From Candidatus Latescibacterota bacterium (GTDB lineage: Bacteria > Latescibacterota > UBA2968 > UBA8231): 64,000 nucleotides of DNA. A program made the position numbers and the translations under genes. Where the stretch lies: positions 608,001-672,000 of the forward strand of contig OZ220089.1 in assembly GCA_964291625.2 (NCBI GenBank), read 5' to 3'. This document shows, piece by piece, positions 6,426 to 31,281 of this stretch (positions within the stretch are counted from its first letter, which is position 1; every line of letters starts with the position of its first letter). The notes beneath the pieces were generated by a model. It ran no database searches, had not been told where the DNA came from, and saw only the letters and a list, made by a program, of their open reading frames with translations.

Positions 6426-6438
6426 TCGGCCCCCCTCC

Positions 6439-6840: not shown

Positions 6841-6843
6841 GGG

Positions 6844-10642
<3,799 letters not shown>

Positions 10643-10688
10643 TCGGCTCTCTCGTTCCTGAATTGGTTGCAGTTGGCTGCGGCCGGCC

Positions 10689-11231
10689 TCAGGCGCTCAC
10701 CAGGCGGTCCCGGAGGCGTCGCAGCTGGGTGTCGACGGAGGCGTCGAAGACGATGTCGCCGACGCGGGCGACGAGACCGCCGCGGAGCGACTCGTCCACC
10801 TCGGCCCGGACGCTTACCCGGCGGCCGGTGTAGCGCGACAGGCGGCTGCCCAGGGCCTCGACCTGCCCGGGCGTCAGGGCCGTTGCGCTGCGGACCTCGG
10901 CGGTATCGACCCCGGCGCGCTCGTCGAGCATGGCCAGGGCCGCGTCGATCATGTCGGCCAGAGCATGGCTACGGCCCCGTGAGGCCACCAGGCGCGTGAA
11001 GTTGAGGGTGAGAGGCTGCACCTTGCCGGCCAGGACGGCCTCCAGCGCCTTCGACGCCGTGGCCCCGTCGGCGAGGCGGTTGCCGAGGAACTCCCGCAAC
11101 TCCCCGGAGGCGCGCAGGGTGGCCGCCAGCCCTTCCAGGTCGCGGCGCACCTCTACGGTGACACCGGTCTCCTCCGCCGCTTCGAGGAGGGTTACGCCGT
11201 AGCGCCGGACCAGCTCGGTTGCCTTGGCCAT
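10689..11231 (-). CDS. atpH: ATP synthase delta subunit
   Basis: Start [11 protein letters not shown]; [31 protein letters not shown]. Confidence 0.9.
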
Positions 11232-11235
11232 CGGC

Positions 11236-11739
11236 TCAGGCGGACGGCTGCGACTGCGGCAGGCGTCCGATGAAGTCGTCGGCGAGCTTGCGGTTGCGCT
11301 CGCCATCGAGCTCGGCGTCGAGGATGGCGCCGGCGGCCTGTACTGCCATGTCGGCCGCCGCCTCGCGCAGCTCGACCAGGGCGGCGCGCTTCTCCGCCTC
11401 GATGCTCTCGGATGCCCGCTCGGCGGTCCGCTGCGCCTCCTGGCGGGCCTCCTCGACGATGCGGGCGCCCACCTGCTCGGCGGCCTCCCGCGCCTCGGCC
11501 ACGATCCGCCGCGCCTCGGACTCGGCCCCGGCGAGCCTCTCCTCGTGCTCTGCCAGCCGTGCCTCGGCCTCCTGGCGGGCCCGGTCGGCGCTCTCGAGAG
11601 AGTCGCGGATGCGTTTCTCCCGCTCGTCCAGGGCCGCCAGCAGCGGACCCCACACCTTCGCCCTGAGGATGAGGAGCACCACCGCAAAGGTGATGATCGT
11701 CCAAAGGATGAGGCCGGGATGGGGGCTGAGCAGATCCAT
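11236..11739 (-). CDS. atpF: Fo subunit b
   Basis: N-terminal TM (WTIITF..KVWGP), then LDEREKRI coiled coil. Confidence 0.95.
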   Translation of the reverse strand: MDLLSPHPGLILWTIITFAVVLLILRAKVWGPLLAALDEREKRIRDSLESADRARQEAEARLAEHEERLAGAESEARRIVAEAREAAEQVGARIVEEARQEAQRTAERASESIEAEKRAALVELREAAADMAVQAAGAILDAELDGERNRKLADDFIGRLPQSQPSA

Positions 11740-11740
11740 G

Positions 11741-11977
<237 letters not shown>

Positions 11978-12832
11978 TCAGTGTTCCGGGTGGGCGGCCA
12001 TGTTCACGAACAGGGCCGTGAGCAGCGTGAAGATGAAGGCCTGTATGCAGGCGATGAAGATGTCCAGAAGGTAGAGAGCCGCCGCCAGCGCCACCGAGGC
12101 CGGCGCCACCCAGTAGCTCTTGAGCATGATGATCATGCCCAGGAAGACGAGGATGGCGACGTGGCCGGCGATCATGTTGGCGAAGAGGCGGATGCACAGG
12201 GCGAAGGGCCTGGCCAGCATGCCGATGATCTCGATCGGCACGAGGATGATCAGCAGCGGCGCCGGCACCCCCGACGGCACCAGGTTCTTCCAGTGGCCGA
12301 AGAAGCCGTTGTTGAGGATGCCGGCCCCCTGGGCGACGGCGAAGGAGATCAGGGCGAGGGCGGCGGTGACGCTGATGTTCCCCGTCGCCGTGGCGCTGTA
12401 CGGCAGCAGGCCGAAGAGGTTGCAGTACAGGATGAAGAAGAAGACGGTGAGCAGGAACGGGAGGTAGGCGCGGCCGCCCTCTCCCATGACCGGCAGGACG
12501 ACCTCGTCGCGCAGGAAGAGGACGATCGTCTCGAGAAGGTTGGCCAGGCCCGACGGCACCAGGGCGGGGCGGCGGAAGCAGGCCAGCATGGTGAGGACGA
12601 GGAGCCCGCTCGCCAGCCACATGACCAGCACGTGGCGGGTGATGGACATGTCGACGCCGAGGATCGGCTCGGCCAGTCCGAGCGCCTCGGACAGGCCCCT
12701 CAGATCGATGTGACCGTCGAAGATGTGGTGGGCGTTGACGAAGGGCACCTCCAGGTAATCGTGGTCCAGGACGTGCCCGATTACGTCTACTTGATTGTCC
12801 GCGCCGTCGGCGGCGGACGCCTCTCCTGCCAT
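11978..12832 (-). CDS. atpB: Fo subunit a
   Basis: NLFGLLP, TATGNISVT, IRLFANMIAGH, IQAFIFTLL; start MAGEASA. Confidence 0.95.
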   Translation of the reverse strand: MAGEASAADGADNQVDVIGHVLDHDYLEVPFVNAHHIFDGHIDLRGLSEALGLAEPILGVDMSITRHVLVMWLASGLLVLTMLACFRRPALVPSGLANLLETIVLFLRDEVVLPVMGEGGRAYLPFLLTVFFFILYCNLFGLLPYSATATGNISVTAALALISFAVAQGAGILNNGFFGHWKNLVPSGVPAPLLIILVPIEIIGMLARPFALCIRLFANMIAGHVAILVFLGMIIMLKSYWVAPASVALAAALYLLDIFIACIQAFIFTLLTALFVNMAAHPEH

Positions 12833-12922
12833 TGACTCCACCCGGGAGTGGCCAGGGGTACTGGGAACAAGACTTGAGAAGTTGCGGAACTTGGCGGTTG
12901 GCCCTGTTGCGCGGCCGGGAGA

Positions 12923-12951
12923 AAAATGTGTGTGCCCCGAGGTCTTGTCAA
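12923..12951 (-). promoter_or_regulatory. Possible internal sigma70 promoter upstream of atpB
   Basis: Perfect TTGACA (12946-12951) in a 125-bp, less GC-rich gap; weak -10 (CATTTT) at 17 bp. Confidence 0.4.
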
Positions 12952-12957
12952 CAGCAC

Positions 12958-13254
12958 TCAGGGCCGCGGGGGGCGGCCGGCGCCGCGGGCCACGAGGACC
13001 ACCTCCAGGGCGAGAAAGACCAGGTAGGCCACGATCAGGCCGGCGGCGTACCCGGTCCTGTGGGTATCCGTGAACCACAGCAGAACGAGGGAGACGGCGG
13101 CCACCAGCAGCAGCCTGGCCGCGGTGCCTCCGAGGATGGCGACCACGAGGGCCCGGGGGTGCCTCGCGCCGAGGCGCAGACCGATCCAGGCGATGACGGC
13201 ACTGGCGGCGGCCACCAGGACTCCGGCCGCGGCGGCGATCCATGGATCCTGCAT
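12958..13254 (-). CDS. atpI: ATP synthase protein I-like membrane protein
   Basis: 98 aa, about three hydrophobic segments, GTAARLLL motif, upstream of atpB. Confidence 0.65.
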   Translation of the reverse strand: MQDPWIAAAAGVLVAAASAVIAWIGLRLGARHPRALVVAILGGTAARLLLVAAVSLVLLWFTDTHRTGYAAGLIVAYLVFLALEVVLVARGAGRPPRP

Positions 13255-13256
13255 GA

Positions 13257-13505
13257 TCAATCCCCTTCCTCGAGATCGTTCGGACGATCGCCGGAGACCA
13301 GGGCCCGGCAGACCTGGTAGAAGGCGGCCACGGCGCCGACGAAGGCCCCCGCGAGCAGCAGCCACGGCGACGTGTCGAGCTCGCCGTCGGCCCACCACCC
13401 GGCGGCGGCGCACACGACCACGGTCACCGCGAACTGCACGCCGAGACCGGCCAGGCGGCCGACCTCTCGAAGCGCCCCCGGCTGCCCGCCGTCCCCGGGA
13501 CTCAC
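13257..13505 (-). CDS. atpZ: AtpZ/AtpI family small membrane protein
   Basis: GLGVQFAV..AGWWADGELDTSPWLLLAGAFVG; GTG start overlaps the nuoN-like stop. Confidence 0.8.
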   Translation of the reverse strand: MSPGDGGQPGALREVGRLAGLGVQFAVTVVVCAAAGWWADGELDTSPWLLLAGAFVGAVAAFYQVCRALVSGDRPNDLEEGD

Positions 13506-14908
13506 CGGAACCCCGCCGCCGCCCCGGCGATCTCCGCCGCCCGGGCCACGGGCGCCGGCCACAGGCCCAGCAGCAGCAGCAGCCCGGCGCTCAGGAGCGC
13601 CGCCGAAAGGCTCCCCGCATCCGGCGCCGATGTCCCCGCGGTCTGCTCCCGCCCCCAGGCGACGTGGGCCGCGAAGCGGAGGAAGACCCAGGCGCTGAGC
13701 AGAGCGTTGGCCAGCAGCAGCACGGAGCCCGCCGACGGGGTCTCGACCAGACCTGCGAACAGCGCCGCGCGGGCGGGAAAGGCAGCCGTGGGCGGCAGGC
13801 CTGCGAGGGCGATGAGGCAGACGCACAGGGCGCCGCCGGCCAGCGGCTCGCGGCGGGCCAGTCCGGCCGCCGTCCCTCCCCGGGCGATGGAGCCGCTCAC
13901 CGCCAGCCCTCCCCCGAGGGCGAGGACCGCCGCCGTGAGTTGCAGCCACAGGCCGGGAGACGGGCCGGGGCCCGCCGCCAGGGCCGCCAGGCCGTATCCC
14001 GCCTGGATTACCACGCCGTACCCGAGCAGCGCCGTGAGCCTCCGCCGCCACAGGGCCAGCAGGTTGCCGGCCGTCACCGTCACCAGCGAGGCCGCCAGCA
14101 GCAGCGACGGCAGGTCCGGACGGACCTCCGCAAGGATCTCCACCAGCCGGCCCCCGACCACCAGGGCCGGCACCACGGAAACAGTCACCGTCAGCATCAC
14201 CGCCGAGGGTGCGCATCCGGCGCTGATCCCGCCCACCCAGTAGTGGAAGGGCACGACTCCGGCGCGCACGGCGAGGCCCGTCAGCAACAGACCTCCCCCG
14301 GTGACGGTCATCGCCGCGGACCCGGCGTCCATGCCCCTCGTCAGTTGTTCCCACTGGGAGGTGCCGGCTCCCGCCCACAGGCAGGCGATGCCCAGGAGGG
14401 TCAGACCCGTGGCGGCGGCCATGGGACCGGCCTGGCGCAGGGCGGCGCGGCTGGCGGCGGCGGGTCCGAGGGCGTTGCCGGCGATCAGACTCGCGGAGGA
14501 CAGCTCCAGACCGACGAACAGGACCACGAGATCCCGGGCGGAGACGGCTACCATGGCGCCCAGGACCCCCAGGGCCGTCAGGACGCCGGCCGCCGCCCGG
14601 ACACCGGCCGGGGCGGGAGAGCCCGCCGCCAGCAGGCCCGCGAGCACGGCTCCCCCCAGGATCAGCAGGTCGGCGAAGGCGGCCACCGGATCGGCGTACA
14701 GCAGTCCGTGCCGCCCCAGGGAGACGGGGTCCCAGGCCTGCAGCGACAGGGACAGGGCCACCAGCAGGCCCCCGAGGGTGAGAACGGCGGGCGCGCGGCC
14801 GGGACGACGGGGCCAGAGCACGGCGTCGAGCAGGGCCAGGCCGATGGCCAGCAGTCCCAGGCTCGTCTCCGGCGCCAGGTCCGGGCCCGCCAGGTCCGTC
14901 CATCTCAC
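13502..14908 (-). CDS. nuoN: Divergent NuoN-like antiporter-type subunit
   Basis: DLVVLFVGLEL, RAGVVPFHYW, LAGLPPTAAF; GTGA overlap with the upstream stop. Confidence 0.75.
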   Translation of the reverse strand: MRWTDLAGPDLAPETSLGLLAIGLALLDAVLWPRRPGRAPAVLTLGGLLVALSLSLQAWDPVSLGRHGLLYADPVAAFADLLILGGAVLAGLLAAGSPAPAGVRAAAGVLTALGVLGAMVAVSARDLVVLFVGLELSSASLIAGNALGPAAASRAALRQAGPMAAATGLTLLGIACLWAGAGTSQWEQLTRGMDAGSAAMTVTGGGLLLTGLAVRAGVVPFHYWVGGISAGCAPSAVMLTVTVSVVPALVVGGRLVEILAEVRPDLPSLLLAASLVTVTAGNLLALWRRRLTALLGYGVVIQAGYGLAALAAGPGPSPGLWLQLTAAVLALGGGLAVSGSIARGGTAAGLARREPLAGGALCVCLIALAGLPPTAAFPARAALFAGLVETPSAGSVLLLANALLSAWVFLRFAAHVAWGREQTAGTSAPDAGSLSAALLSAGLLLLLGLWPAPVARAAEIAGAAAGFR

Positions 14909-16362
14909 GGGCGGATGCCCTTCACCTGCGCGGCCGGGGCCGCCTTCACCCCCGGCTCGCCGGAGGTCGGGGGACCCGGCCGCATGCGCTCGATGACCGG
15001 CCGGGCCCCGGACAGCAGCGGCTCCGGGCGCAGACCGACGACCCCGGCGGTGACGATGAGCAGCGCCAGAACCCGGCCCAGGGCCCCGCGGCCGGACGAA
15101 ACCGGTCTCCGCGCCAGATCCACCACCGGATCGAGGAGCGCCACCGCGAGGACTCCCGATGAGAGGATGAGGAGCCAGCCCAGGCCCGGGTGGACTGACA
15201 GGACCCCCGCCACCAAGGTCAGCCAACCGGGCAAGGCCCCGCCCCCCGGGACGGCGGCCACGGTCAGACCCAGGGCCAGCCAGGCCCACGCGGTGCGCAG
15301 ACCGCCCGCTCCCCGGTCCTCGATCCACAGGGCGAGAAGGAGCAGGGAGGCGCGCGGCAGGGCGATGCCCGCGGCCAGGGCCGCGGCTCCCAGAGCCTGG
15401 AGGCTGCCTGGCGCGAAGAGACCGGCAGCCACCAGGCCGCCGGTGGAGGCCACGGCCAGGGCCGCCCGCGGGGACAGGCCGGGACGGGGCTGGACAACCG
15501 CCAGCATCGCCGTCCAAAGGGAGCTCGAGCCGGCCCACAGGACCAGCCACGTCGAGGCCGCCAGGGCTTCGGCCGGAAACAGGGCCAGCCAGAATCGCAG
15601 CAGACCGAAGGCTCCCACCGCGCACCAGGCGCCGGAGATCAGGATCCGCCCGGAGAGGGCGCCGGACGTGCACACCGGGACCAGCCAGGTATGGAACGGC
15701 ACCAGGGGGATCTGCATGGCCAGGGCCGCCGCCGCCAGCGCCGCCGCCGGCCCCCCGTGGGAGACGTCCGCGGCGGCGAGCTTGTCAACGAGGGTGCAGC
15801 CGTTCCCGGCGCCGCACAGGGCCGCGGCGGCGGCCAGCATCAGGGACCCGCTCGCCGCCCAGTGGGCGAAGCGGCGGCCGGCGCGCCCGCTGCCCGCTTC
15901 CCGGTCCAGGCCGAGGACCGCCGCCAGGGCCAGACCGGCGAGACCGTGGCCGGCGGCGGCGACCATCAGATCGCGGGTGGTCAGCACCAGGGCCATCCCG
16001 CCAGCGCCCGTCAGGGCCAGGGCCAGCCGGGCCCGGCTGGGCGCCCCCCCGAAGCGGCCCTCCACGCTCACCGCCAGCAGCAGCACCGCCGCCAGGGCCA
16101 GCAGGGCGTAGCGGTTGAGGCCGTCGATGGCCAGCGCCAGCCCGGAGCCCGTCGTCGCCAGCCACGGGGCGGTAGACCCCCAGGAGAGCTCCCGGCCGTG
16201 GGCGGCCTCCAGACATGAGAGGCCGGCGAGGAGCAGCAGACCCGCCGCGGCGGCGGTGGAGACCCTTCTTGCGGCGAGCCCCCGCAGCGGCGCCAGGGCG
16301 AGGCCCAGGGCCGCGCACAGAGGCAGCAGGACGATGCCCAGGGTCACGAAGGAGACGTCCAC
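14905..16362 (-). CDS. nuoM: Divergent NuoM-like subunit
   Basis: LAIDGLN, QIPLVPFHTWL, GAFGLLRF. Confidence 0.75.
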   Translation of the reverse strand: MDVSFVTLGIVLLPLCAALGLALAPLRGLAARRVSTAAAAGLLLLAGLSCLEAAHGRELSWGSTAPWLATTGSGLALAIDGLNRYALLALAAVLLLAVSVEGRFGGAPSRARLALALTGAGGMALVLTTRDLMVAAAGHGLAGLALAAVLGLDREAGSGRAGRRFAHWAASGSLMLAAAAALCGAGNGCTLVDKLAAADVSHGGPAAALAAAALAMQIPLVPFHTWLVPVCTSGALSGRILISGAWCAVGAFGLLRFWLALFPAEALAASTWLVLWAGSSSLWTAMLAVVQPRPGLSPRAALAVASTGGLVAAGLFAPGSLQALGAAALAAGIALPRASLLLLALWIEDRGAGGLRTAWAWLALGLTVAAVPGGGALPGWLTLVAGVLSVHPGLGWLLILSSGVLAVALLDPVVDLARRPVSSGRGALGRVLALLIVTAGVVGLRPEPLLSGARPVIERMRPGPPTSGEPGVKAAPAAQVKGIRP

Positions 16363-16363
16363 C

Positions 16364-18043
16364 TCAGCGGCCCTCCATGCACCACAGGACCACGAGCACC
16401 ACCCCCGCGGCCAGGGCCGCCGGCCAGAGCCGCCGACTGGCGTGCTCCGCCCACGCCAGCGCCCAGCCCGCGCCGCGGAGAGCCAGGCCCAGGGCGCCCC
16501 AGGCGGCGCCGAGGACGGCGCCGTCGACGAAGGTCCACAGCCCCCGGCCCAGGGAGATGGCCGCCACGGCGACCCCCTGCTGAGCGGCGCCGGCGCCAAA
16601 CCCGCCGGCGGCAAACCGGCGCGCGGCCGAGGCCGGCCGCAGGGCCGGGTTCAGACCCCGGCGCCAGATCAGGACGGAGATCCCCACGGCCGCGGCGTTG
16701 GCCGCGGCGGCCAGTCCGAATCCGTCCAACGGGGGCGCGGGCAGGCTCATCCAGGCGAGGACGGGCAGAGCCGCGAAGACCAGCCCGGCCGAGATCGATC
16801 CGGCCGCGGTCGGGAGAGCCGGCCGGACCACCTCCTTCGCGGCGGCCCGTGGAACCGCCCCTGCAAAGGGGGCGAGGGCGAGCCGGCCCATGGCGAGGAC
16901 CGACAGGGCGAATGGGGCCAGGACGGCGGCCATCCCCGCGGGTCCGTAGCCGCCATAGGCATGCTTCAGCAGGAGTGCCTGACCCCAGAGCCCGGTGAGG
17001 GAGAGGACCGGGACCAGGACGGCGGCCAGGCACATCCACCGGGCCGCCGGCAGGGAGCCGCCCAGGCCGCCGAGCTGGTTTAGCCGCACCACCGCCGGGA
17101 GGGCGGCCCTGACCAGACCGAGGCCCGCGGCCAGGCAGAGCCGGGCGCCCAGGGCCGTGCCCAGCACCAGCCATCCCGCGATTGGATCGGCTGCGGCCGC
17201 CGCCGCCGCCAACCCGGCCTGGGCCGCCGCGATCCAACCCGGGATCCGCCGCAGTCCGCCGCTTGCCAGGGCCGCCGCCGAGGCGGCTGCGGCCGCCGCT
17301 AGGCCGACGCCGAAGACCACCTCCTGCAGGGGTCCCGCCAGTGGGCCGGACCGGGACAACAGGGATGCGCCGGCCACGGCCAGAACGCTCGCCGCGGCGC
17401 CGGAGGCCGGGCAGGACGACACCTCCAGGATCCACTGGTGGAGCGGCCAGGCGCCGAGGCCGATGACGGCGGCGAGGATGAGCAGACCTGCGGCCGGTTC
17501 CGCGTTCCAGGCGATGCCTTCGTGAGGGCCGCCTCCCGCCATTGAGGCAGCGGTTGCGGCCAGCAGGGCCACCGAACCGATTCGAGTCAGCAGCAGCAGG
17601 CGGCGGGCTCCGGCTTCGGAGACGTCCCCGGACCTGGCGGCCGTCACCAGGAGGGCGGCGACGGCGATCTCCCATCCCAGCAGCAGGGGCAGCCAGTCGG
17701 CGGCGCACGACAGCAGGACCACTCCCATGGCGGCCACCGTGACCATGGCCCGGTGGACTCCGTCGATGGCCGGCTGAGCCAGCGGATACAGCAGACCGGC
17801 GACGGCGGCGGCCCCCAGGGCAGCCGCCGCGGTCCCGTCGGCGCGCAGGCCGAACCCGAGGCTGGCGCCGCCCGCGGGACCGGCGCCGACCGCTCCCCCT
17901 GCGAACCCGGCGGCGGCAAGGCATGCGAGGAGCCGCAGAGCGTGGGCGGGCCTCGGCCGTCCGGCAAGGTCGGCGGCGGCGGCTCCGGCGAAGGCCAGGA
18001 GGACGGCGGCGAGGGCCGCACCGAGAGTCTGCGCGTCGGTCAT
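16364..18043 (-). CDS. nuoL: Divergent NuoL-like subunit
   Basis: LGWEIA, TRIG, WPLHQW, LGGL, FVDGAV; start MTDAQT overlaps the nuoK-like stop (ATGA). Confidence 0.75.
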   Translation of the reverse strand: MTDAQTLGAALAAVLLAFAGAAAADLAGRPRPAHALRLLACLAAAGFAGGAVGAGPAGGASLGFGLRADGTAAAALGAAAVAGLLYPLAQPAIDGVHRAMVTVAAMGVVLLSCAADWLPLLLGWEIAVAALLVTAARSGDVSEAGARRLLLLTRIGSVALLAATAASMAGGGPHEGIAWNAEPAAGLLILAAVIGLGAWPLHQWILEVSSCPASGAAASVLAVAGASLLSRSGPLAGPLQEVVFGVGLAAAAAASAAALASGGLRRIPGWIAAAQAGLAAAAAAADPIAGWLVLGTALGARLCLAAGLGLVRAALPAVVRLNQLGGLGGSLPAARWMCLAAVLVPVLSLTGLWGQALLLKHAYGGYGPAGMAAVLAPFALSVLAMGRLALAPFAGAVPRAAAKEVVRPALPTAAGSISAGLVFAALPVLAWMSLPAPPLDGFGLAAAANAAAVGISVLIWRRGLNPALRPASAARRFAAGGFGAGAAQQGVAVAAISLGRGLWTFVDGAVLGAAWGALGLALRGAGWALAWAEHASRRLWPAALAAGVVLVVLWCMEGR

Positions 18044-18312
18044 GGGTGGGGCGCCTGTCCTGACTTGCCGGCAGCCTCCCGGCGGACCAGCGCCAGCACG
18101 AGGCCGGCCTGGGCCCCCGCCGCGGCGACCGCGGCGACGGCCAGCACGCGCCCCTCCCCGCCGAGGAGCGTCACCACGGCCAGCACCCCTCCGAGGATCC
18201 CCACCTGCCCGGCCACCAGCGGCGCCAGGGCATGAGGCCGGAGCAGCGCGGCCCCGACGCCGGCGGCCAGGAGCAACGCCGCCAGCGCCAGGACCCATGC
18301 GGTTGCGGTCAC
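18040..18312 (-). CDS. nuoK: Divergent NuoK-like subunit
   Basis: 90 aa, three hydrophobic segments, VAAAGAQAGLVL echoes [10 protein letters not shown]; operon position. Confidence 0.6.
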   Translation of the reverse strand: MTATAWVLALAALLLAAGVGAALLRPHALAPLVAGQVGILGGVLAVVTLLGGEGRVLAVAAVAAAGAQAGLVLALVRREAAGKSGQAPHP

Positions 18313-18758
18313 GAGGCTTCCATGCCGGGACCCGGCCGCCGCGAGAGGGCGCCGACCCCGACCACCGCCGAGAGCAGCAACAGGGCTCCGAGGGCGAGGA
18401 CCAGAACGCCGCTGCGCGGCGGCTCCGCGGCAGGGGATGGTCCAGCAGCCAGGCCGGCGGACAGGGCCATGGCCAGGACCACCCCCAGCCCCGCGACCAC
18501 GACCGCCGACAGCAGCCGCGTCGGACGGCTCGCGGCGCTGGCGGCCAGCGCCGCCGGGGACGAGGCCGCCAGTCCCACCGCCGCCTGCACCAGGAGCACG
18601 GCGGCGGCGGTGAAGGCGTCGTGCACGGCGGCGATGGCCGCCACCCCGGCGGCGGCGAGACCGAGGCCGACGCAGGCGCCGTGGGCGGAGCGCCAGCAGG
18701 CGGCGGCGAGGGCGCCTCCACCGGCGGCGGCGGTCGAGGCAAGCAGGATCAGTTCCAC
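18309..18758 (-). CDS. nuoJ: Divergent NuoJ-like subunit
   Basis: Hydrophobic 149 aa from GTG (VELILLA), LLLSAVVGVGAL at the C-terminus; position. Confidence 0.55.
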   Translation of the reverse strand: MELILLASTAAAGGGALAAACWRSAHGACVGLGLAAAGVAAIAAVHDAFTAAAVLLVQAAVGLAASSPAALAASAASRPTRLLSAVVVAGLGVVLAMALSAGLAAGPSPAAEPPRSGVLVLALGALLLLSAVVGVGALSRRPGPGMEAS

Positions 18759-19681
18759 GGCAGCCACCCCGCGGAGCGGAGGACCGAGAGGGCGAGGTCG
18801 ACCAGGGCGAGGGGGACGATGCGCGTCCAGGCCGTGCGCGCGAGCCCGGCGGGCGTGCCGTCCGACAGGCTGGGACCGATGGCCACCGCCGAGGCCAGCA
18901 CCGCGGCGGCGGTCACAGCGGGCAGGATCTCCACCCATCCGGCCGCCCCCGGCAGGCCGCCGCCGAACAGGTGGCAGGCGAGGAGGGCGGCCGCCCCCAG
19001 CTGCAGATGCCGCGACAGGGACAGCCACAGCGGGCCCGTCCCGGAGGCCGGACGCAGTCCGGCCCGGCGCCCGCCGAGCACCGATCCGGTGCAGCGGCAG
19101 AGGACGGCGAGGGCCCCGACCCAGGCCGCCACCCCCGCGGGATGGGACCACAGGGGCCAGTCCCCCGGGGCGCGGGAGTACGCCGCCAGCACCGGAACGC
19201 CGTCGGTGACCAGCGCCGCCGCCACCAGCAGAAAGGCCAGGTGGCAGCCCATGATGGTCACGGCGCCCGCGCTCAGGGACCGGCGCCCCTCGGCCCCGGC
19301 GAAGGCCGCCGGCAGCATCCAGGCCTGGGCCGAAACCCCCAGCAGGGCCACCAGCACCAGCGCCTGCACCGCTCCCCCCGCGGTGGCCGCCCCCTGGGGA
19401 AACAGCCCTCCCACCCCCGCGCCGGGGGGCAGAAGAGCGACCAGGGCAAGGGCGGGCAGCAGGGCGGCGAAGGCCGCGGCACCCGCTCCGGGGGCCGGCC
19501 TCCCCGATCGTGCCATCACCTTTGCTGCGTCGGCCACGGGACCGAGGAGCGGCGGACGGCGCAGGCCGGTGACTCGGGCCCTCGCCGCACGCTCGACGAT
19601 GGCGCTGCCGTAGGCGAGACCGAGGCTGCCGAGGAGAGCGAGGAAGGCGCCGCCGGAAGAGATGTCGGCGGATGAGGTCAC
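18749..19681 (-). CDS. nuoH: Divergent NuoH-like subunit
   Basis: IVER..GPVADAAK, AWTRIVPLAL; about eight hydrophobic segments; position. Confidence 0.65.
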   Translation of the reverse strand: MTSSADISSGGAFLALLGSLGLAYGSAIVERAARARVTGLRRPPLLGPVADAAKVMARSGRPAPGAGAAAFAALLPALALVALLPPGAGVGGLFPQGAATAGGAVQALVLVALLGVSAQAWMLPAAFAGAEGRRSLSAGAVTIMGCHLAFLLVAAALVTDGVPVLAAYSRAPGDWPLWSHPAGVAAWVGALAVLCRCTGSVLGGRRAGLRPASGTGPLWLSLSRHLQLGAAALLACHLFGGGLPGAAGWVEILPAVTAAAVLASAVAIGPSLSDGTPAGLARTAWTRIVPLALVDLALSVLRSAGWLPWN

Positions 19682-21288
19682 GGCCGGCTGACGAGGTCGG
19701 CGGCGGGGACCTGGCCGGAGCGCCGCAGCCAGCTCGTCCAGCCGCCGCCGAAGGCGGGCCCCGGCGTCGGATGGTCATCCCCGTCGAGGGTTTGGTAGTC
19801 GAGTCCGGCGAAAGGTTCGTGACGGGTCCGGGCCAGCCGCGCGAAGAACTGGTCGGCCGAATCGCGGTTCGGACCGCCGTGCCAGAGGGCGCTGAGGATC
19901 CACAGGTCCGGTCTGGCGTCGCCGGGGGGCTCGACGGCGGAGCGGACCCGCCGCACCCGTCCGAGGCCGTCGACGAAGGTGCCCTCCTTCTCGGTCCAGG
20001 CGCTCCCGCCCGCCAGGGCGATGACGGCGCCATCCACCAGCGGCGACGGGGTGAGGTCGTGGGAGATGAGCCGCGTCTCCCGGCCCCGGAGGATGCCCGG
20101 GCCCTCTCCGCACAGCGAGCCTCCCACGGCGTACACCACGTCGAGGCCGGCGGGGAGGTCGGGCGCCGGAAGCGGGGACGATCCCGTCGCCCGGGCGACG
20201 GCCCGGACGCCGGCGGCGTTCGGCCCTTTGGAGGCGCTGATCGTGAACCCTCCGGGAAAGACGCGGTCTCCCCCGGGATCCGCCTCCTCCCACAAGTAGA
20301 GCTCCGCCTTCCAGCGGCGGGCGAGCTGGATGAGCAGGAAGGCCTCCTCGTTGGTCAGGTAGGGGCTCAGGATCACCGCGGAGCGGCGCCCCTGCTCCAT
20401 CTCTTCGGCAACACCGGCCAGGGCCGTGTCCCAACCCGCCTCCCGGCCCTCCCGGCGCGGAGCCAGCAGGCGTTCGCCCTGCGGCTGCCAGCCGTAGCGG
20501 CCGTGATCGCACAGCCAGAAGCCGCCGGCCGGATCCTCCGGCCGGGGCTTGACCCTCCACACGCGGCCGTCGTGCACGTCCACCCGGGTGGCGCAGCCGC
20601 TGGCGCACCCGGCGCAAACGCTGGAGACCCCCGTCAGCCGCCACGGCGGCGGCGCCTCTCGTTCATCGGGATCGCTCAGGGCGCCCGCCGGGCACAGGTC
20701 CAGGAGGTTGCCGGTCATGGCCCCTGCGATCCGATCACCGGCGCCGGCGCCGATGCGGGCGCCGGCCCCGCCGCCTTCGACGGCCAGGCCCGGCTCCCCG
20801 GAGACCTCTTCGCCGAAGCGGACACAGCGGGTGCACAGGATGCACCGACGGCGGTCGAGGATCAGCCTCGGCCCGAGGACGAGGCGCTCCGGCTCTCCCG
20901 GCCCCACCGACGGCGTTCGGCCGCCCCCGGCAACCCGCACCGCTTCCTGCAGCTCGCACTCGCCGGCCCGCTCGCAGACGGCGCAGTCCGCCGGGTGGCG
21001 CAGCAGCAGGTCGTCGAGCACGCGCTCGCGCGCCGCCGCCGCTTCGGGCGCATCGAGGGAGACCGACATCCCCCCGCGGACCCCCTGGTTGCAGACGGTG
21101 ATCAGCTCCGGACCCCCCGGCCCCTCCAGGGAGGCGACGCACAGACGGCAGGAGGCCGGTGCCGAGAGGGCCGGATGGAAGCAGGGGTGCGGCAGCTCGC
21201 GGCCAGCCGACAGCAGGGTCGTCAGGAGGTTCGCCCCCTCCCGAGCCTCCACGGCCTCCCCGTCCACATGGATGGTGACGATGGCCAT
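19678..21288 (-). CDS. nuoG: NuoG-like Fe-S subunit
   Basis: Start MAIVTIHVDG; CFHPALSAPASCRLC, HPADCAVCERAGEC, RCILCTRC..CPAGAL, CAGCASGC..LCDHGRY. Confidence 0.9.
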   Translation of the reverse strand: MAIVTIHVDGEAVEAREGANLLTTLLSAGRELPHPCFHPALSAPASCRLCVASLEGPGGPELITVCNQGVRGGMSVSLDAPEAAAARERVLDDLLLRHPADCAVCERAGECELQEAVRVAGGGRTPSVGPGEPERLVLGPRLILDRRRCILCTRCVRFGEEVSGEPGLAVEGGGAGARIGAGAGDRIAGAMTGNLLDLCPAGALSDPDEREAPPPWRLTGVSSVCAGCASGCATRVDVHDGRVWRVKPRPEDPAGGFWLCDHGRYGWQPQGERLLAPRREGREAGWDTALAGVAEEMEQGRRSAVILSPYLTNEEAFLLIQLARRWKAELYLWEEADPGGDRVFPGGFTISASKGPNAAGVRAVARATGSSPLPAPDLPAGLDVVYAVGGSLCGEGPGILRGRETRLISHDLTPSPLVDGAVIALAGGSAWTEKEGTFVDGLGRVRRVRSAVEPPGDARPDLWILSALWHGGPNRDSADQFFARLARTRHEPFAGLDYQTLDGDDHPTPGPAFGGGWTSWLRRSGQVPAADLVSRP

Positions 21289-22602
21289 CAGAACCGCACG
21301 TGGATGCTCTCGGGGGACTTCATGGACAGATCCTTGGCCACCGGGCAGCCGCCGTCCAGATGGGCCTCGAACTCCTCGGCGAAGGCGGTGGCCAGGGCGC
21401 TGATCGGCGGAACTTCCGAGGGGTCCGTGCCCGCACAGAGCCAGGGGCGAGGTGAGGGACGCGGCCCTGGAGCGCAGCTGCTCCAGCTCCCCGGCCTTCG
21501 AGGCTCCGGCCTCGAGCCGATGGAGGACGCCGGCGGCCCAGGCGAGGCCCTCGCGGCATGGCGGGCACTGGGCGCAGGACGCGCCGGCCAGGTAGGCCGC
21601 CACCAGCCGGGCCGTGTCCACGGCGCAGACCGTCTCGTCGGCGACGATGACGGCGCCCGAGCCGAAGTCGCCTTCGAGGCCGCCGCCGCCGGGGCTGCTC
21701 CAGGCCCCGGGATCGACGGGCCGGTCGAGATCGGCCTCGCGCAGCACGGGCCGGGAGCCGTACCCGGAGTGGAGGACGAACTTCAGGGGCCGGCCATCGA
21801 GCGTACCTCCCGCGAGCCCCTCCACGAGACCGCGGAAGGTGCCCGAACCGAGGGCCACCTCGTACAGGCCCGGACGGCGCACGAGGCCGCTGATGCAGAA
21901 GACCTGGGTCCCCGGCGCCGAGGCGCTGCCCACGGCGCGGAAGGCGGCGCTCCCCCCCGCCAGCACCTGCGGCAGGTAGCCGAGGGTGGAGGCGGTATGC
22001 ACGGCGGCGGGCTCGCCGAAGAGGCTGGTGGCCGGCCCCCGGGTGCCGTCCGCTGCCCTTGGCTCGGGGCGGCCGCCTTCGATCAGGTTCAGGGCCAGGC
22101 TGTCGCCCGCGGCGACCGGGAGGGATCCGGGCACGGGGTGCAGGTGAATGGACAGACCGTGGCCGCCGACCTCTCCCGACTCGCGCAGCTCCGAGAGGGC
22201 CGCGGTCAGGGCCTTCCGGGCCCGCACCGCGTCGGCGCGGATGCAGAGGAAGGCCGCCGAGGCGCCGGTGGCCAGGGCGGCGATGCGCACGCCCTCCAGG
22301 AGCCGGTGCGGGTGCCGCTCCGCCAGCTTGCGGTCGCGGAAACGGGCCGGCTCCGGCTCGAGCAGGTCGGCCACCAGGTAGCGGGCGCCGCCGCGCTCCC
22401 GCAGGGCCTTCCAGCGCTCCCCCACCGGCCGCCAGGAGCCGCCGCGGCCGCGCAGACCGGAGGCCGTCACCTCCTCGACCACCCCGTCCGCTCCCAGGGC
22501 CAGGGCCCGGGCGAGGCCGCCGCCGCCGCGCCGGCGGTAGATGTGGTAGCGGTCGACGTCGGGTACGTCGATGCCCTCGAAGAGCAGGCGGTGCTCGTTC
22601 AC
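21288..22602 (-). CDS. nuoF: Divergent NuoF-like subunit with a frameshift near 21405-21412
   Basis: SGLRGRGG, SCAQCPPCREG, ALCGHG; the expected C-terminus PISALATAFAEEFEAHLDGGCP..* lies in another frame and ends in a TGATG overlap with nuoG. Confidence 0.85.
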
Positions 22603-23018
22603 GCCGCCTCTCCGGAGACAAGGTCGTCGAGACGCGCGGGGGTCAGCCCGTCGAAGAGGCGCCCCCCCCGCTCGAAGGCGGGCGCCGCCGAGCAGACGCC
22701 GAGGCAGGGGGCGGGGATCACCAGGTCCCCGAGACGTTCCCGCAGCCGGCGGCCGACCTCGTCGCCCCCCATGAGCCTGCAGCTCAACCCCGCGCAGACC
22801 CGCACCCGGTCCGCGGAACGGCCGCCGCCGCGGCTGGAGGCGATACCGGCGACGGCGGCGGCCGACAGTCCCGTGAGCCCGGCGATCCAGCGCGCCGCCT
22901 CGGGCTCGCAGGCGCCGCGGTCGGTCAGCACCAGGTCGATGAGGGGCATCAGGGCCCCGGAGGGGCGGGGGTAGCGGCTCAGCAGCTGCCGGGCGCGCTG
23001 CTCCAGGGCCTCGGTCAC
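22599..23018 (-). CDS. nuoE: NuoE-like [2Fe-2S] subunit
   Basis: SRYP..ALMPL, CAGLSC..CLGVC..AP. Confidence 0.85.
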   Translation of the reverse strand: MTEALEQRARQLLSRYPRPSGALMPLIDLVLTDRGACEPEAARWIAGLTGLSAAAVAGIASSRGGGRSADRVRVCAGLSCRLMGGDEVGRRLRERLGDLVIPAPCLGVCSAAPAFERGGRLFDGLTPARLDDLVSGEAA

Positions 23019-24541
23019 CGGTCCATCTCGGAAGCGATGACGTTGAGGCTGGCCACCACCTGCGGTGCCTGGTCGTACCCGAGCCCGGCCAGCAGCGCCG
23101 GGAGGAGGCGGAAGTGGTACAGCGACGGAGAGCGCATGTGGACCCGGGCCGGTCCGCCGGTGCCGTCGGAGACCAGGTAGAAGGCCAGCTCGCCGTCGGC
23201 GGACTCGATGGGGAGGTAGATGTCGTGCCGGACGGGACGATACCCGTGCCCGTCCATCCAGCGCCCGAAGTGGTCGATCAGCTCGGCGGGCTCCGTGGAG
23301 CGCTCCGTCGGCCGGGGGGTCTCGTGCGCCAGGGTCGGTCCGCCGGGGGCTCCGGTCACGCACTGCCGGGCGATGGAGAGGGACTCCCCCATCTCCTCGA
23401 GACGGACCCGCGTGCGGTCGACGATGTCGCCCGAGTCCGCCGTGGGCACGCGGAACCGGACCTCCCCGTACGCGAGATAGGGATCGGTGCGCCGCACGTC
23501 CAGGTCGATACCCGCGGCGCGGGCCACCGGCCCCGTGGCCCCGGCGCCCAAGGCCTCGGCGGCGTCGAGAGCCCCGGCGCCGGAGAAGCGGCGGCGCCAG
23601 TGCCGGTGGTCCACGGTGCTGCGCAGGGCATCCGAGCGCAGCCGGTCGACGGCGCTTCCCAGGTCGGCCAGCAAGCGGATGGCGCCGGCGGGCACGTCGG
23701 CGGCGATCCCGCCGAGGCGCTGGGTGCCGGTGGCCCAGCGGCTGCCGCTGGCGGCGGAGAGGAAGCGCGCCGCCGCCTCCCGGGCGGTCAGGGCCTGGCC
23801 CCACAGGGCGGAATCAGGCCCCGCCAGGTTGGCCAGCCAGGCGCAGTGGGCGCCGACGCGGCCGATCTCGGCCAGCAGCATTCGCACCCAGTTGCACCGG
23901 GGCGGCGGCGTGATCCCCAGCAGGGCCTCGGCGGCGAGGACCGCCGCCAGCCCGGGCGCGGACGGCGCCTGCTCGTTGAGGCTCTCGGCCAGCACCGGCA
24001 GCTGGGCCCATGTGCGGCCCTCGGCGAGTCTCTCGAAGCCGCTGTGGAGCCGTCCCGGGCGGGCCGTGGCGGTCTCGATCCGGCCGCCGCGCAGGCGCGC
24101 CCCGAGGTCGAGCCGGAAGGGGGTGGCCAGGGAGGGATCGTGGATCGGCACCTCCCCCTCCGGCGGCGTTGGAGGCATCTCTCCGGGGACCATGGCCTGC
24201 GAGGCGGAGAAGAGGGGCCGCAGGTCATCCCGCCCCCCGATGCGCATCCCGAAGCGGCCGGCCATCTCCCGCTCCGGCCAGTCGGCGGCTGGCCAGACGT
24301 GGGCCAGCCCCGGCAGCTCGCCGGTGCCGGCGGCGGTCAGCCGGGTGCGGTTGCCCGCCGCCGAGCGGAGCTGGTAGACCGCCCGGAACCGAGGATCGGG
24401 GCTCGCGCCGCCCACGGCGGTGAGGTCGACGAGATGCAGGGTCGGGTCCGCGGCGAGCAGGGCCGCCGCCTGCGCCTCCAGCCGGCCGGCGGAGACCTCC
24501 AGGACCGCCGCCGCGGCCTCCGGCGGGGCGGTGGCCGTCAC
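23015..24541 (-). CDS. nuoCD: Divergent fused NuoC/D-like subunit
   Basis: DLTAV, WPAADWPEREMAGRFG (NuoC part); LHSGFERLAE, DVRRTDPY, ESADGEL, MRSPS, EMDR (NuoD part). Confidence 0.85.
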   Translation of the reverse strand: MTATAPPEAAAAVLEVSAGRLEAQAAALLAADPTLHLVDLTAVGGASPDPRFRAVYQLRSAAGNRTRLTAAGTGELPGLAHVWPAADWPEREMAGRFGMRIGGRDDLRPLFSASQAMVPGEMPPTPPEGEVPIHDPSLATPFRLDLGARLRGGRIETATARPGRLHSGFERLAEGRTWAQLPVLAESLNEQAPSAPGLAAVLAAEALLGITPPPRCNWVRMLLAEIGRVGAHCAWLANLAGPDSALWGQALTAREAAARFLSAASGSRWATGTQRLGGIAADVPAGAIRLLADLGSAVDRLRSDALRSTVDHRHWRRRFSGAGALDAAEALGAGATGPVARAAGIDLDVRRTDPYLAYGEVRFRVPTADSGDIVDRTRVRLEEMGESLSIARQCVTGAPGGPTLAHETPRPTERSTEPAELIDHFGRWMDGHGYRPVRHDIYLPIESADGELAFYLVSDGTGGPARVHMRSPSLYHFRLLPALLAGLGYDQAPQVVASLNVIASEMDR

Positions 24542-24876
24542 GTTGACTCCGCCGGGGAGGGCCGGCCTTCCCGGCGCCCGACGTGGATCAGGGCGATGAC
24601 GACGACCAGGAGGAGGAGCAGCATCGGGAGAACGGCTCCGGCGCCTTCGGGCCCCGCGGCGAGAAGCACGAGCAGCAGGACGGCGCCGGAAAGGGCCGGG
24701 GCGAGCCAGGCGAGGGGGCGCCACGAGTCCTCGGTCTCCACCTCGCCGCCGCCGGCCATGGCGGACGACGGGGGCTTCCTGGCGGGGCCGGCGAGGGCGC
24801 GCCTCAGCAGCGCGGCCAGGACCCCCAGCAGCAGCCAGAGACCGAGATAGGTGACGAGGGGCAGGTAAGCGGTCAA
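24538..24876 (-). CDS. nuoA: Divergent NuoA-like subunit
   Basis: 112 aa, three hydrophobic segments, YLPLV..K..REG pattern; first gene of the nuo-like run. Confidence 0.55.
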   Translation of the reverse strand: MTAYLPLVTYLGLWLLLGVLAALLRRALAGPARKPPSSAMAGGGEVETEDSWRPLAWLAPALSGAVLLLVLLAAGPEGAGAVLPMLLLLLVVVIALIHVGRREGRPSPAEST

Positions 24877-24934: not shown

Positions 24935-25195
24935 TCAGACGGTGGCCTTCTCGCGGACCTCCCGGAGTGGCCCCGCGGCGGGGGCCGCGGCCGGGTCGAA
25001 GCGGCCCTCGCGGCCGGTGCCGCAGGAGTCGCCGGGCCGGGCTCCGCACTCGCACATGGGCTCGCCGTCCCCGGTCTGCAGGTTGGCCAGGCCGCCGCAG
25101 GAGCCGGTGATCCTGCGGTTGCCGAGGATCACCCCCACGGCCATGCCGGCGATCACCAGGGTGAAGACGACGAGGGCTGATAGAAAGAGGGTCAT
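24935..25195 (-). CDS. nqrM: Na+-NQR maturation factor NqrM (DUF539)
   Basis: TM segment, then [18 protein letters not shown], directly after nqrF. Confidence 0.85.
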
Positions 25196-25226
25196 GGGGG
25201 ACGTGCAAGCACTCGCGGAGGGAGCC

Positions 25227-26465
25227 TCAGCTGCCGAAGTCGTCGAAGCGGATCATCTCCTCTTCGACGCCCAGATCGTCGAGCATGGCGAGGACCGCCG
25301 TGAGCATCATGGGAGGGCCGCAGAGGTAGTACTCGATGTCCTCCGGCGCCGGGTGCTTGCTGAGGTACTCGTCGAGCACGACCTGGTGGATGAACCCGGT
25401 GGGTCCGGTCCAGTTGTCCTCGGGCAGGGGCTCGGACATGGCCACGTGGAAGGAGAAGTTCGGGAACTTCTCCTCCAGGTCGCGGAAGTGGTCCTCGTAG
25501 AACAGCTCCTTGCTCGACCGCGCCCCGTACCAGTAGGAGACCTTGCGCTGCGTGCTCTCGGTGTGGAACAGGTGAAACAGGTGCGAGCGCAGGGGCGCCA
25601 TGCCGGCGCCGCCGCCGATGTAGCACATCTCGCGGTCGGTCTCCTGGATGTAGAACTCCCCGTAGGGTCCGGAGATCGTCACCTTGTCCCCCGGGTCGAG
25701 GGCGAAGGTGTACGACGAGGCCAGCCCCGGGTTGACCTTCTCCCAGCCGCCGGCCTTGCGGTCGATGGGCGGCGTGGCGATGCGGATGTTGAGCATGACC
25801 ATGTCGCCCTCGGCCGGGTGGTTGGCCATGGAGTAGGCCCGCACCACCGTCTCGGTCCCCACCGTCTGCAGGTCCCAGACCTTGAACCGGTCCCAGTCCT
25901 CGTGGAAGCGCGCGTCGATGTCGAAGTCGCGGAAGCTGCACCGGAAGGGCGGCACCTCGATCTGGATGAAGCCGCCGGACTGGAAGTCGAGGGTTTCGCC
26001 CTCGGGCAGCTTGAGGACCAGCTCCTTGATGAAGGTCGCCACGTTGTCGTTGGAGACGACCTCGCACTCCATGCGCTTCACCGAGAACACCTCGGGCGGG
26101 ACCTCGATCTGCATGTCCTGCTTGACCGTGACCTGGCACGAGAGGCGCTCCCCCTCCTTCTCCTCGCGCCGGGTGATGTGCTCCTTCTCGGTGGCCAGGA
26201 TCTCGCCGCCGCCGTCGTGGACCTTGACCCGGCACTGGGCGCAGGTGCCGCCGCCGCCGCAGGCCGAGGAGACGAAGAGTCCGTTGTCGGCGAGCACGTT
26301 CAGCAGCTTGCCGCCCGCCGGGGTGACCAGGTCGCGCTCGCCGTTGACCTCGATGTTGACGTCCCCCGTGGCCACCAGCTTCGAGCGCGCCGCCAGGATG
26401 ACGGCCACCAGGGCCAGGACCACGCCGGTGAACATGCTCACGCCGCCGAGGACGCTGTCGATCAT
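25227..26465 (-). CDS. nqrF: Na+-NQR subunit F
   Basis: [38 protein letters not shown]. Confidence 0.97.
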
Positions 26466-26479
26466 GAGTCGTCCGCTTC

Positions 26480-27094
26480 CTACAGCTGGATGCCGGAGAA
26501 GGCCATGAAGGCCATGGCCATGAGGCCCACGGTCATGAAGGTGATGCCCAGGCCGCGCAGGCCATGGGGTATGTCGGCGTAGCGCAGCTTCTCGCGGATG
26601 CCGGCGAGGCCGACGATGGCCAGGGCCCAGCCGACGCCGGAGCCGAAGCCGAAGACGACGCTCTCGCCGAAGCCGTAATCGCGCTCGACCATGAACAGGG
26701 AGCCGCCGAGGATGGCGCAGTTCACCGTGATCAGGGGCAGGAAGATGCCCAGGGCGTTGTACAGGGCCGGCACGTACTTGTCGAGGAACATCTCGAGGAT
26801 CTGAACGCTGGCGGCGATGACGCCGATGTAGCTGATGAGCCCCACGAAGGTGAGGTCGACGCCCCCGAGGCCGAGGGCGGCCAGGGCCTCCTCGCGCAGC
26901 AAGTGGCGGTAGACCAGGTTGTTCAGGGGCACGGTGATCGTCTGCACGACGACGACGGCGATGCCGAGGCCGAAGGAGGTGGAGACGCGCTTGGAGACGG
27001 CCAGGAAGGTGCACATGCCGAGGAAGAAGGCGAGGGCGATGTTCTCGACGAAGACCGCCTTGACGAAGAGGTTGAGGCCGGCCTCGAACATCAC
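26480..27094 (-). CDS. nqrE: Na+-NQR subunit E
   Basis: [28 protein letters not shown]. Confidence 0.95.
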
Positions 27095-27744: not shown

Positions 27745-27747
27745 GGT

Positions 27748-28524: not shown

Positions 28525-28535
28525 GGGGCCGTCTC

Positions 28536-29744: not shown

Positions 29745-29746
29745 GA

Positions 29747-31105: not shown

Positions 31106-31281
31106 GGCGGGGCGGAACGGCTGGACGTGGAGTGGCGCCCCGGAGGGCCCGATCTGGAGGCAGGGCGCAACCCGGTCGCGTCGGGTGGAAGTACAAGGCT
31201 TGCTGTCGGCGATCCGTGGGGGAGGTGTGGACTGGATACGCACCGGGAACCGGCGCTGTGACATCGTCCTGAAGTTGAGTT

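Follow-up and report, generated by a model that had tools for sequence, protein, structure and literature searches.

A complex I-type operon with intact iron-sulfur ligands and replaced catalytic residues, next to Na+-NQR genes, in a Latescibacterota bacterium

Introduction

What does a bacterium retain in a complex I whose catalytic motifs have eroded? The question is posed by an operon of 11 nuo-like genes (hereafter nuo', with primed names for its genes and proteins) in 64,000 nucleotides of the genome of a Candidatus Latescibacterota bacterium (GenBank assembly GCA_964291625.2, contig OZ220089.1, positions 608,001 to 672,000). This whole stretch, the window (G000:C1:608001-672000), has a GC content of 70-77% and is part of a genome in 2 contigs, to which the prefix G000 refers throughout. 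Gene calls based on codon-position GC and the tiling of open reading frames (ORFs) revealed on the minus strand of the window a string of genes formed by nqrA-F and nqrM (31264-24935), the 11 nuo-like genes (24876-13502) and an F-type ATP synthase operon (13460-6439). A preliminary description of the window, made from its letters alone, had taken the nuo' operon for a complex I without NuoB and NuoI, and so without an electron path to quinone, and had proposed that it was either under relaxed selection after replacement by the sodium pump Na+-NQR or repurposed.

The genome is predicted to encode all 14 core subunits (NuoA to NuoN), with 11 genes (C and D being fused) in the window and two more, nuoB' and nuoI', elsewhere. 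Because quinone-site, NADH-site and proton-channel residues are replaced in proper alignments, the sequences support the view that the encoded complex is not a canonical complex I. With B' and I', nuo' is best described, from its predicted proteins, as a lineage-specific and strongly derived 14-subunit complex I (NuoEFG-bearing and with a fused NuoCD) of uncultured soil-type bacteria. We consider it somewhat probable that the operon specifies a still-assembled, non-pumping iron-sulfur (Fe-S) complex under relaxed but real selection.

Results

Catalytic residues and Fe-S ligands of the nuo' proteins

The genes of the operon are arranged in the order A', CD' (fused), E', F', G', H', J', K', L', M', N' and were assigned as follows (g and f numbers denote genera and families).

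24538-24876, minus strand: nuoA' (112 aa), assigned by position and graded similarity through intermediates; without Pfam signal, the g10 and f3 orthologues at the same position matching Oxidored_q4
23015-24541, minus strand: nuoCD' (fused); Pfam Complex1_49kDa (203 bits) and Complex1_30kDa (47 bits); top PDB match Aquifex NuoCD (7q5y_B)
22599-23018, minus strand: nuoE' (139 aa); Pfam 2Fe-2S_thioredx; four N1a-type Cys kept
21294-22602, minus strand: nuoF', with a 1-nt insertion near 21407; Pfam Complex1_51K, SLBB and NADH_4Fe-4S
19678-21294, minus strand: nuoG' (538 aa, short form); Pfam Fer2_4, NADH-G_4Fe-4S_3, Fer4_Nqo3 and Molybdop_Fe4S4
18749-19681, minus strand: nuoH' (310 aa); hhalign to the NuoH profile with 92% probability (E 5.8e-7, 243 columns)
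18309-18758, minus strand: nuoJ' (149 aa), assigned by position and graded similarity through intermediates; the g10 orthologue matches Oxidored_q3
18040-18312, minus strand: nuoK' (90 aa), assigned by position, graded similarity through intermediates and alignments
16364-18043, minus strand: nuoL' (559 aa); a profile of 5 g1 sequences matches ND2 chains (E 8e-6); C-terminal long-helix region kept
14905-16362, minus strand: nuoM' (485 aa); Pfam Proton_antipo_M (27 bits)
13502-14908, minus strand: nuoN' (468 aa); Pfam Proton_antipo_M (68 bits); NCBIfam NuoN subfamily 123.5 bits, under the cut-off of 332.6

We aligned each subunit with its orthologues from genus g1, with intermediates from the family (G075 and G068), with the form present in family f3 and with the canonical operon of the same genome. 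Bridging sequences underpin the alignments where subunits are most diverged, and the NuoK' genes of g1 and g18, which the G075 NuoK' query missed, were taken by position. As landmarks we used residues whose roles we assume from the complex I literature: Nqo4 His38, Tyr87 and Asp139 at the quinone site (T. thermophilus numbering), NuoK Glu36 and Glu72, the Glu and Lys residues of transmembrane helices (TM) 5, 7, 8 and 12, and the NuoF motifs.

The Cys and His ligands of the Fe-S clusters were all kept in E', F', G', B' and I' (N1a, N3, N1b, N4, N5, the N7-type site, N6a/b and N2) in all the sequences aligned, even across relatives that are 50-60% identical; those of N1b, N4, N5 and the N7-type site reside in NuoG'. 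A C-terminal extension of the eroded NuoG' (window 19678-19800; ..GGGW(T/S)..L.RRG....D..KR) is common to g1, g5 and g10 and is absent from the NuoG of f3 and of the outgroup.

The catalytic landmarks fared differently. At the quinone site of NuoD' the loop His between beta1 and beta2 is gone, the Tyr of the DR.DY motif is Glu (Asp in some relatives, the position being acidic throughout the genus) and the Asp of the D.GA motif is gone. Both membrane Glu of NuoK' are Gln, the acidic TM5-6 loop of NuoH' has disappeared and 4/4 key residues of NuoM' are changed (TM5 Glu to His, TM7 Lys to Gln, TM8 Lys to Ala and TM12 Glu to Trp). NuoN' keeps its TM5 Glu, has Arg in place of the TM7 and TM12 Lys and has lost the TM8 Lys; the TM5 Glu is also kept in NuoL', which has lost the TM7 Lys and carries Arg (Gln in relatives) for the TM12 Lys. 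Replacements in the membrane subunits are often near-isosteric but non-titratable (Glu to Gln, Lys to Arg or Gln). For NuoF, we take the FMN/NADH-binding signature to consist of GRGGAGFP, EPGT.KDR, GAGAYICGEE, PPFP and NNVET. NuoF' conserves the GRGG loop and an F(R/K)DR..PH..LEG block (FRDRKL..PH..LEG). In 5/5 genus members aligned, including the in-frame portion of the window's gene, other residues stand in place of the CGEE-, PPFP- and NNVET-type motifs. The subunit alignments thus confirm the earlier observation of eroded catalytic motifs beside retained Fe-S ligands.

Unlinked nuoB' and nuoI' genes

The gene boundaries agree with the preliminary description in that nuoA' overlaps nuoCD' and nuoH' overlaps nuoJ', and neither nuoB nor nuoI fits between the genes of the operon (13502-24876). 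Nearly all junctions overlap, as had been noted: seven do so by 4 nt at GTGA or ATGA (A/CD, CD/E, E/F, G/H, J/K, K/L and M/N) and H'/J' by 10 nt, with a 1-nt gap between L' and M'. The absent genes lie elsewhere. A whole-genome search with hidden Markov models, proposed in the preliminary description as a check, retrieved a second NuoB-like gene (nuoB', G000:C1:4614717-4615112), a NuoI-like gene (nuoI', G000:C2:471560-471943) and a second nuo operon, of 11 subunits. The argument that no NuoB and NuoI meant no electron path falls with them, as both genes keep all their cluster Cys and travel with the operon in relatives. NuoB' (131 residues) retains the ligand pattern CC..C..CP and scores above the NCBIfam NuoB subfamily cut-off (131.7 versus 116); NuoI' retains two CxxCxxCxxxCP motifs (8/8 Cys) and has NuoI as its best family, but under the cut-off (76 versus 113).

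The genomic contexts of both genes, apbC-like carrier - nuoB' - prmA and nuoI' after rny, are kept in 5/5 related genomes, as is the longer order dnaJ - carrier - nuoB' - prmA. In the window genome nuoB' begins at the stop codon of the carrier gene (L030, G000:C1:4610001-4622000, 3914-5112), which encodes a carrier of Fe-S clusters of the ApbC/Mrp type (NCBIfam NF008669, 296.7 bits, under the cut-off of 348). Ind1/NUBPL, an assembly factor of mitochondrial complex I, belongs to this protein family.

Besides their canonical copies, 5/5 relatives searched carry one orthologue each of B' (90, 86, 82, 61 and 61% identity) and of I' (95, 91, 74, 59 and 57%), and these identities track those of the operon proteins. 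Terminal branches in a NuoB tree, for the same genomes, were 0-0.015 for the canonical copies versus 0.12-0.17 for B', and the B subunits of the 11-subunit operons formed a clade (93/89) with every B' outside it. An FGT.CC motif and the absence of a 3-residue insertion are common to B' and to the NuoB encoded within CD-type operons of other genera. Among 132 genomes of the class, related members of which are not independent, 56 had both a CD-type NuoD and a NuoI'-type gene, none had the operon type alone, four (76-92% complete) had the NuoI' type alone and 72 had neither, at thresholds set after seeing the score gaps (best CD' match at least 140 bits; NuoI' type at least 49.8 bits). In the G068 genome (1 contig, 93% complete) NuoD, NuoB and NuoI have a single match each, and the three lie far apart.

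The operon of G023 (locus L054, family f3; A-CD-E-F-G-H-J-K-L-M) is also without nuoB and nuoI and encodes proteins that look fully canonical; at tree resolution, the unlinked NuoB of G023 is identical to the operon-linked NuoB of neighbouring genera. From these comparisons, we read the unlinked nuoB and nuoI as an old habit of the CD-type operon rather than as a loss, nuoI being outside the operon in most lineages of the class and nuoB in several.

Reading frames, selection and divergence

The operon is flanked by nqr and atp in 8 related species-level genomes (L014-L021), among which the F'G' identity falls from 93% to 56% and the GC content of the locus falls to 63%. In the window, nuo' has no in-frame stops in 3752 codons, compared with 76 and 6 in the other two frames and 53 after shuffling. 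The 8 relatives also had none (2711-3766 codons per genome; shuffles 53-73), and in four deep relatives, whose operon genes have a GC content of 65-70%, the other frames contained 30-89. Open nuo' frames are therefore not explained by high GC, which the preliminary description had entertained as a cause. Eroded operons with open frames occur in several genera (g1, g5 and g10), full-length CD' matches without stops in g4, g13 and g18, and nuoH is intact in L052. An apparent nuoG' frameshift in L021 turned out to be a 10-N scaffold gap.

The one lesion found in these operons is the nuoF' frameshift of the window itself, already noticed in the preliminary description. Nucleotide alignment with 4/4 close relatives identified one extra base near 21407, which puts the last ~45 NuoF' residues out of frame and makes F' and G' a single ORF of 974 codons; in 6 relatives NuoF' ends in a conserved tail of ~45 residues and nuoG' begins at an overlapping ATG. 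All four N3 Cys are upstream of the inserted base. Either an assembly error or a real lesion may account for it.

We estimated omega (dN/dS) by NG86, a method that is only approximate in genes with third-position GC (GC3) near 0.9, and obtained for the concatenated nuo' genes (~3700 codons) values of 0.40 versus L014 (bootstrap 0.36-0.46) and 0.39 versus L018 (bootstrap 0.36-0.43). Values were 0.20-0.32 for nuoB', 0.17-0.23 for nuoI' and mostly 0.0-0.3, with a few up to 0.69, for the nqr and atp neighbours. The unaltered f3 operon (0.018 for H) had an omega of 0.086 at a dS of 0.34, similar to the dS of the nuo' comparison, and of 0.11 at a dS of 1.4. Selection on nuo' is ~4.5-fold relaxed relative to its unaltered homologue, and much more in the membrane subunits, yet it is clearly present. 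Hence the continuing selection suspected from the open frames stands; plain pseudogene decay, for which an omega near 1 and scattered stops in relatives had been named as the signs, is rejected by the upper bounds of 0.43-0.46, the stop-free frames of the 8 relatives and the single lesion. Across the deep split in the genus, identities were 47-61% for the peripheral-arm and 23-51% for the membrane-arm nuo' proteins, compared with 63-91% for Nqr and 58-95% for Atp.

Divergence from family consensus was as strong as first described. Pfam searches at E<=10 returned nothing relevant for A', H', J', K' and L', and M' and N' matched at the low scores listed above; all nuo' proteins are below the NCBIfam equivalog cut-offs. 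The best PDB sequence matches of F' were NuoF/HydB-type flavoproteins. Searching the PDB sequences with a profile of six NuoH' sequences from the genus gave 0 matches at E<=1; on the hhalign result and synteny, nuoH' is assigned as a remote NuoH homologue. The Ala/Gly-rich composition was confirmed as well, the Gly+Ala+Arg+Pro fraction being 0.45-0.48 in nuo' versus 0.31 in nqr, 0.33 in atp and 0.32 in the membrane subunits of this genome's canonical nuo operon.

Association with Na+-NQR

The nuo' genes are directly preceded and followed by two energy-conservation operons.

24935-31264, minus strand: nqrA-F and nqrM (Na+-NQR operon), directly upstream of nuo'; Pfam NQRA_N/NQRA_2nd, NQR2_RnfD_RnfE, FMN_bind, Rnf-Nqr (twice), Fer2/FAD_binding_6/NAD_binding_1 and NqrM
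6439-13460, minus strand: ATP synthase operon (atpI-like, B, E, F, H, A, G, D, C), directly downstream of nuo'; assigned by Pfam

Erosion was found in Nqr-bearing lineages only. NqrA is present in 67/75 genomes of family f1 and 24/31 of f4, and in none of f3 (0/22) or f2 (0/3). Among NuoD homologues of Nqr-negative genomes, 12/12 keep the Tyr and the Asp, and 9/9 fragments that extend over the His keep it too. In the NuoD homologues of Nqr-positive f1 genomes (n=13), Tyr is lost in 9 and the Asp motif in 12, the exception being G120, which has a conventional operon. Similarly, both NuoK Glu are kept in 8/8 Nqr-negative genomes; in eroded operons the second is lost in 11/11 and the first in 10/11. 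These patterns may stem from one or few events and describe a history rather than a statistical test.

Throughout the family the nqr and atp neighbours lie on one strand, either adjacent or parted only by an eroded nuo operon. In 3/3 f1 genomes examined without nuo' (L076, L077 and L078), nqrM is directly followed by atp, and 45/75 f1 genomes have no NuoD match at all. A scan of 19.3 kb from nqr to the start of atp in the window detected no promoter-like site and no coding-strand terminator-like site, which would be weakly consistent with a single nqr-nuo'-atp transcription unit.

The c subunit of the ATP synthase (11741-11962) has no Ser/Thr after the carboxylate and, by a motif that we take to be diagnostic, is read as H+-type, though Nqr is a sodium pump. 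A match to ATPase_gene1 raised the possibility of an N-type ATPase, which was rejected on the ordinary F-type gene order (atpIBEFHAGDC). We also rejected for nuo' the role of a Mrp-type Na+/H+ antiporter linking the Nqr sodium gradient to the H+-type ATP synthase, as the operon has no MnhE, MrpF or MnhG and antiporter Lys/Glu are replaced in L' and M'.

Other complex I-type genes and known systems

The second nuo operon of the genome (C1:1608140-~1618000) is a conventional one with strong Pfam scores, nuoABCDHIJKLMN, without nuoEFG. Its 'NuoM' (L028, G000:C1:1607001-1620000, 8035-9510) has Leu at the expected TM7 Lys, either real or an alignment offset. The sole other NuoF homologue of the genome is in a cluster (L029, G000:C1:2583001-2596000, 3422-8053) encoding NuoE-like and NuoF-like proteins and a 973-aa molybdopterin protein, an FdsGBA-type NAD-dependent formate dehydrogenase by domain content. 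In G023, the A-CD-E-F-G-H-J-K-L-M series (L054, G023:C1:1354001-1374000, 1774-18937) continues with MnhE, MrpF, MnhG, MbhD/E-like, MnhB, NuoK/MnhC-like and a pair of Proton_antipo_M genes, among which no separate nuoN could be identified; the cluster may be a complex I-Mrp hybrid.

Canonical 14-subunit complex I with a fused NuoCD (E. coli, 7p61; Aquifex aeolicus, 7q5y) has the same subunit set and order as nuo', the same NuoC-D fusion and all the Fe-S ligand motifs. The nuo' system differs from it in having nuoB and nuoI outside the operon and in the replacement of the NADH/FMN signature, the quinone His/Tyr/Asp, the NuoK Glu pair, the NuoH acidic loop and most antiporter Lys/Glu. The unaltered CD-type operon of sister families (L054, G023) has the architecture of nuo', is without nuoI and (in G023) nuoB, which are encoded elsewhere, and is evidently the evolutionary source of the window's operon. 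Unlike nuo', the L054-type proteins score strongly with Pfam (422 bits for NuoH), keep every catalytic residue examined and have an omega of 0.086, and they come from genomes without NqrA. The energy-converting hydrogenase related (Ehr) complexes, reportedly described by Marreiros et al. in 2013, are said to be relatives of complex I and group 4 hydrogenases that miss catalytic-site residues and whose function is unknown. They reportedly have no NuoEFG and often miss Fe-S ligands, whereas nuo' keeps the whole Fe-S chain.

Complex I-like enzymes of 11 subunits without NuoEFG are known as NDH-1-like or 'ancestral' complex I (Moparthi and Hagerhall, 2011, PMC3144371; a Desulfitobacterium study, PMC11238625). 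They are, like nuo', non-standard complexes I with a changed input side; they have no N-module and keep NuoB and NuoI together with the quinone site and the residues for pumping, whereas nuo' has an altered N-module and has lost the pumping residues. Two complex I operons are listed for the cultured bacterium Gemmatimonas aurantiaca by Spero et al. (2015, PMC4453560). The parts of the literature accessible to us held no description of an eroded complex I, or of unlinked nuoB or nuoI in this phylum.

Discussion

The reading of nuo' as an assembled, non-pumping complex is favoured because constraint acts at the amino-acid level, the unlinked B' and I' are constrained more tightly and all cluster ligands are kept, and because many of the membrane-arm changes are near-isosteric and the eroded form persists across several genera. 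The complex would still be made, loaded with Fe-S clusters and assembled. It would no longer pump protons, nor use NADH and quinone canonically, and the Na+-NQR encoded immediately upstream would have taken over NADH:quinone oxidation. Selection would most likely preserve a membrane-anchored Fe-S electron-transfer or redox-sensing module, with the degenerate membrane arm serving mainly as an anchor and assembly scaffold. Both options of the preliminary description, relaxed selection after Na+-NQR and repurposing, gain support from the Nqr-confined erosion, the ~4.5-fold relaxation and the rejection of plain decay. Of the evidence it had named as refuting its view, one half was found (matching nuoB' and nuoI' elsewhere) and the other, conserved catalytic residues in proper alignments, was not, so that the denial of a canonical complex I holds on grounds other than missing subunits.

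Several observations weigh against this reading. In most genera of the family the operon has been cleanly lost, with nqr beside atp, so it is dispensable. The nuo' genes have an omega 4-5 times as high as the functional homologue, and the amino-acid composition of their proteins has drifted with GC, both as weak constraint predicts, and the omega values themselves carry the approximation of NG86 at high GC3. The window's own nuoF' is frameshifted, and no new conserved motif suggestive of a new substrate was identified in the nuo' proteins. Physical binding of B' and I' to the complex is putative, deduced from co-occurrence, rate and phylogeny.

A bolder proposal, which we regard as possible but hold with more doubt than the assembly of the complex, is that the lineage has turned a whole complex I into a natural 'pseudo-enzyme'. 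Thirteen genes, two of them unlinked, would have been retained by selection over family-level time once the chemistry of NADH, quinone and proton pumping was gone. Either the nine-cluster Fe-S wire would have been exapted for another electron-transfer or redox-sensing job, or the assembled body would have a structural role beside Na+-NQR and ATP synthase, whose genes lie in the same cluster.

The main rival, unlikely in our judgement, is a functionless relic in slow decay after the Na+-NQR takeover, with frames kept open only by indirect selection, through polar effects of premature stops on the essential atp operon or the toxicity of misfolded Fe-S and membrane proteins. The confinement of erosion to Nqr-bearing lineages, the family genera in which nqr abuts atp without the operon, the 4.5-fold rise in omega, the drift towards Gly, Ala, Arg and Pro and the frameshifted nuoF' would all suit such a relic; the lack of promoter- and terminator-like sites between nqr and atp, a weak point, also fits the single transcription unit that polarity requires. 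Yet polarity selection alone predicts an omega near 1, well above the 0.39-0.40 seen, and cannot reach nuoI', which follows rny far from atp and still has an omega of 0.17-0.23 and 8/8 Cys. Nor does the relic sit well with Fe-S ligands kept in full across relatives only 50-60% identical, with open frames in g1, g5 and g10 and full-length stop-free CD' matches in g4, g13 and g18, or with a tally of one lesion once the L021 break was traced to a run of 10 N.

We think it improbable that nuo' encodes a working NADH (or NADPH):menaquinone oxidoreductase with unconventional residues, with or without ion pumping. Such an enzyme would account for the full subunit set and Fe-S chain, for the conserved GRGG loop and FRDRKL..PH..LEG block of NuoF', and for the TM5 Glu of NuoL' and NuoN' and the charge that Lys-to-Arg changes retain. 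However, it would have to operate with all three quinone-site residues replaced (the Tyr by an acidic residue throughout the genus), without the CGEE, PPFP and NNVET-type motifs of NuoF, and without both NuoK Glu, the NuoH acidic loop and 4/4 key NuoM residues, whereas the NuoD (12/12) and NuoK (8/8) positions are invariant in homologues from Nqr-negative genomes of the class. Least credible of all, despite an 11-subunit operon without EFG and no other NuoEF-like genes than those of the FdsGBA-type cluster, is that nuo' mainly supplies the NADH-input module E'F'G' to that separate complex, as the NADH-site signature of NuoF' is lost, the operon's own A, CD, H, J, K, L, M and N are kept under the same selection and G068 has the eroded operon but no 11-subunit one (single NuoD and NuoB matches).

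The case has a bearing on how complex I genes are read. Operon content alone is unreliable for judging subunits 'missing' in this class, because most of its lineages encode nuoI, and several encode nuoB, apart from this type of operon. The class also holds other stages, from an unaltered, ancestor-like form through intermediates to complete loss. Among the complex I residues regarded as invariant are the NuoK glutamates, the antiporter lysines and the Tyr/His pair of NuoD, and Glu-to-Gln and Lys-to-Arg laboratory mutants are the standard 'assembled but dead' variants. This lineage has made such changes throughout the complex and has kept every Fe-S ligand and, in the relatives, every reading frame (that of nuoF' being shifted in the window). 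If expressed, the nuo' complex would show either what use complex I can have without pumping or for how long a large multisubunit machine can outlast its replacement by Na+-NQR.

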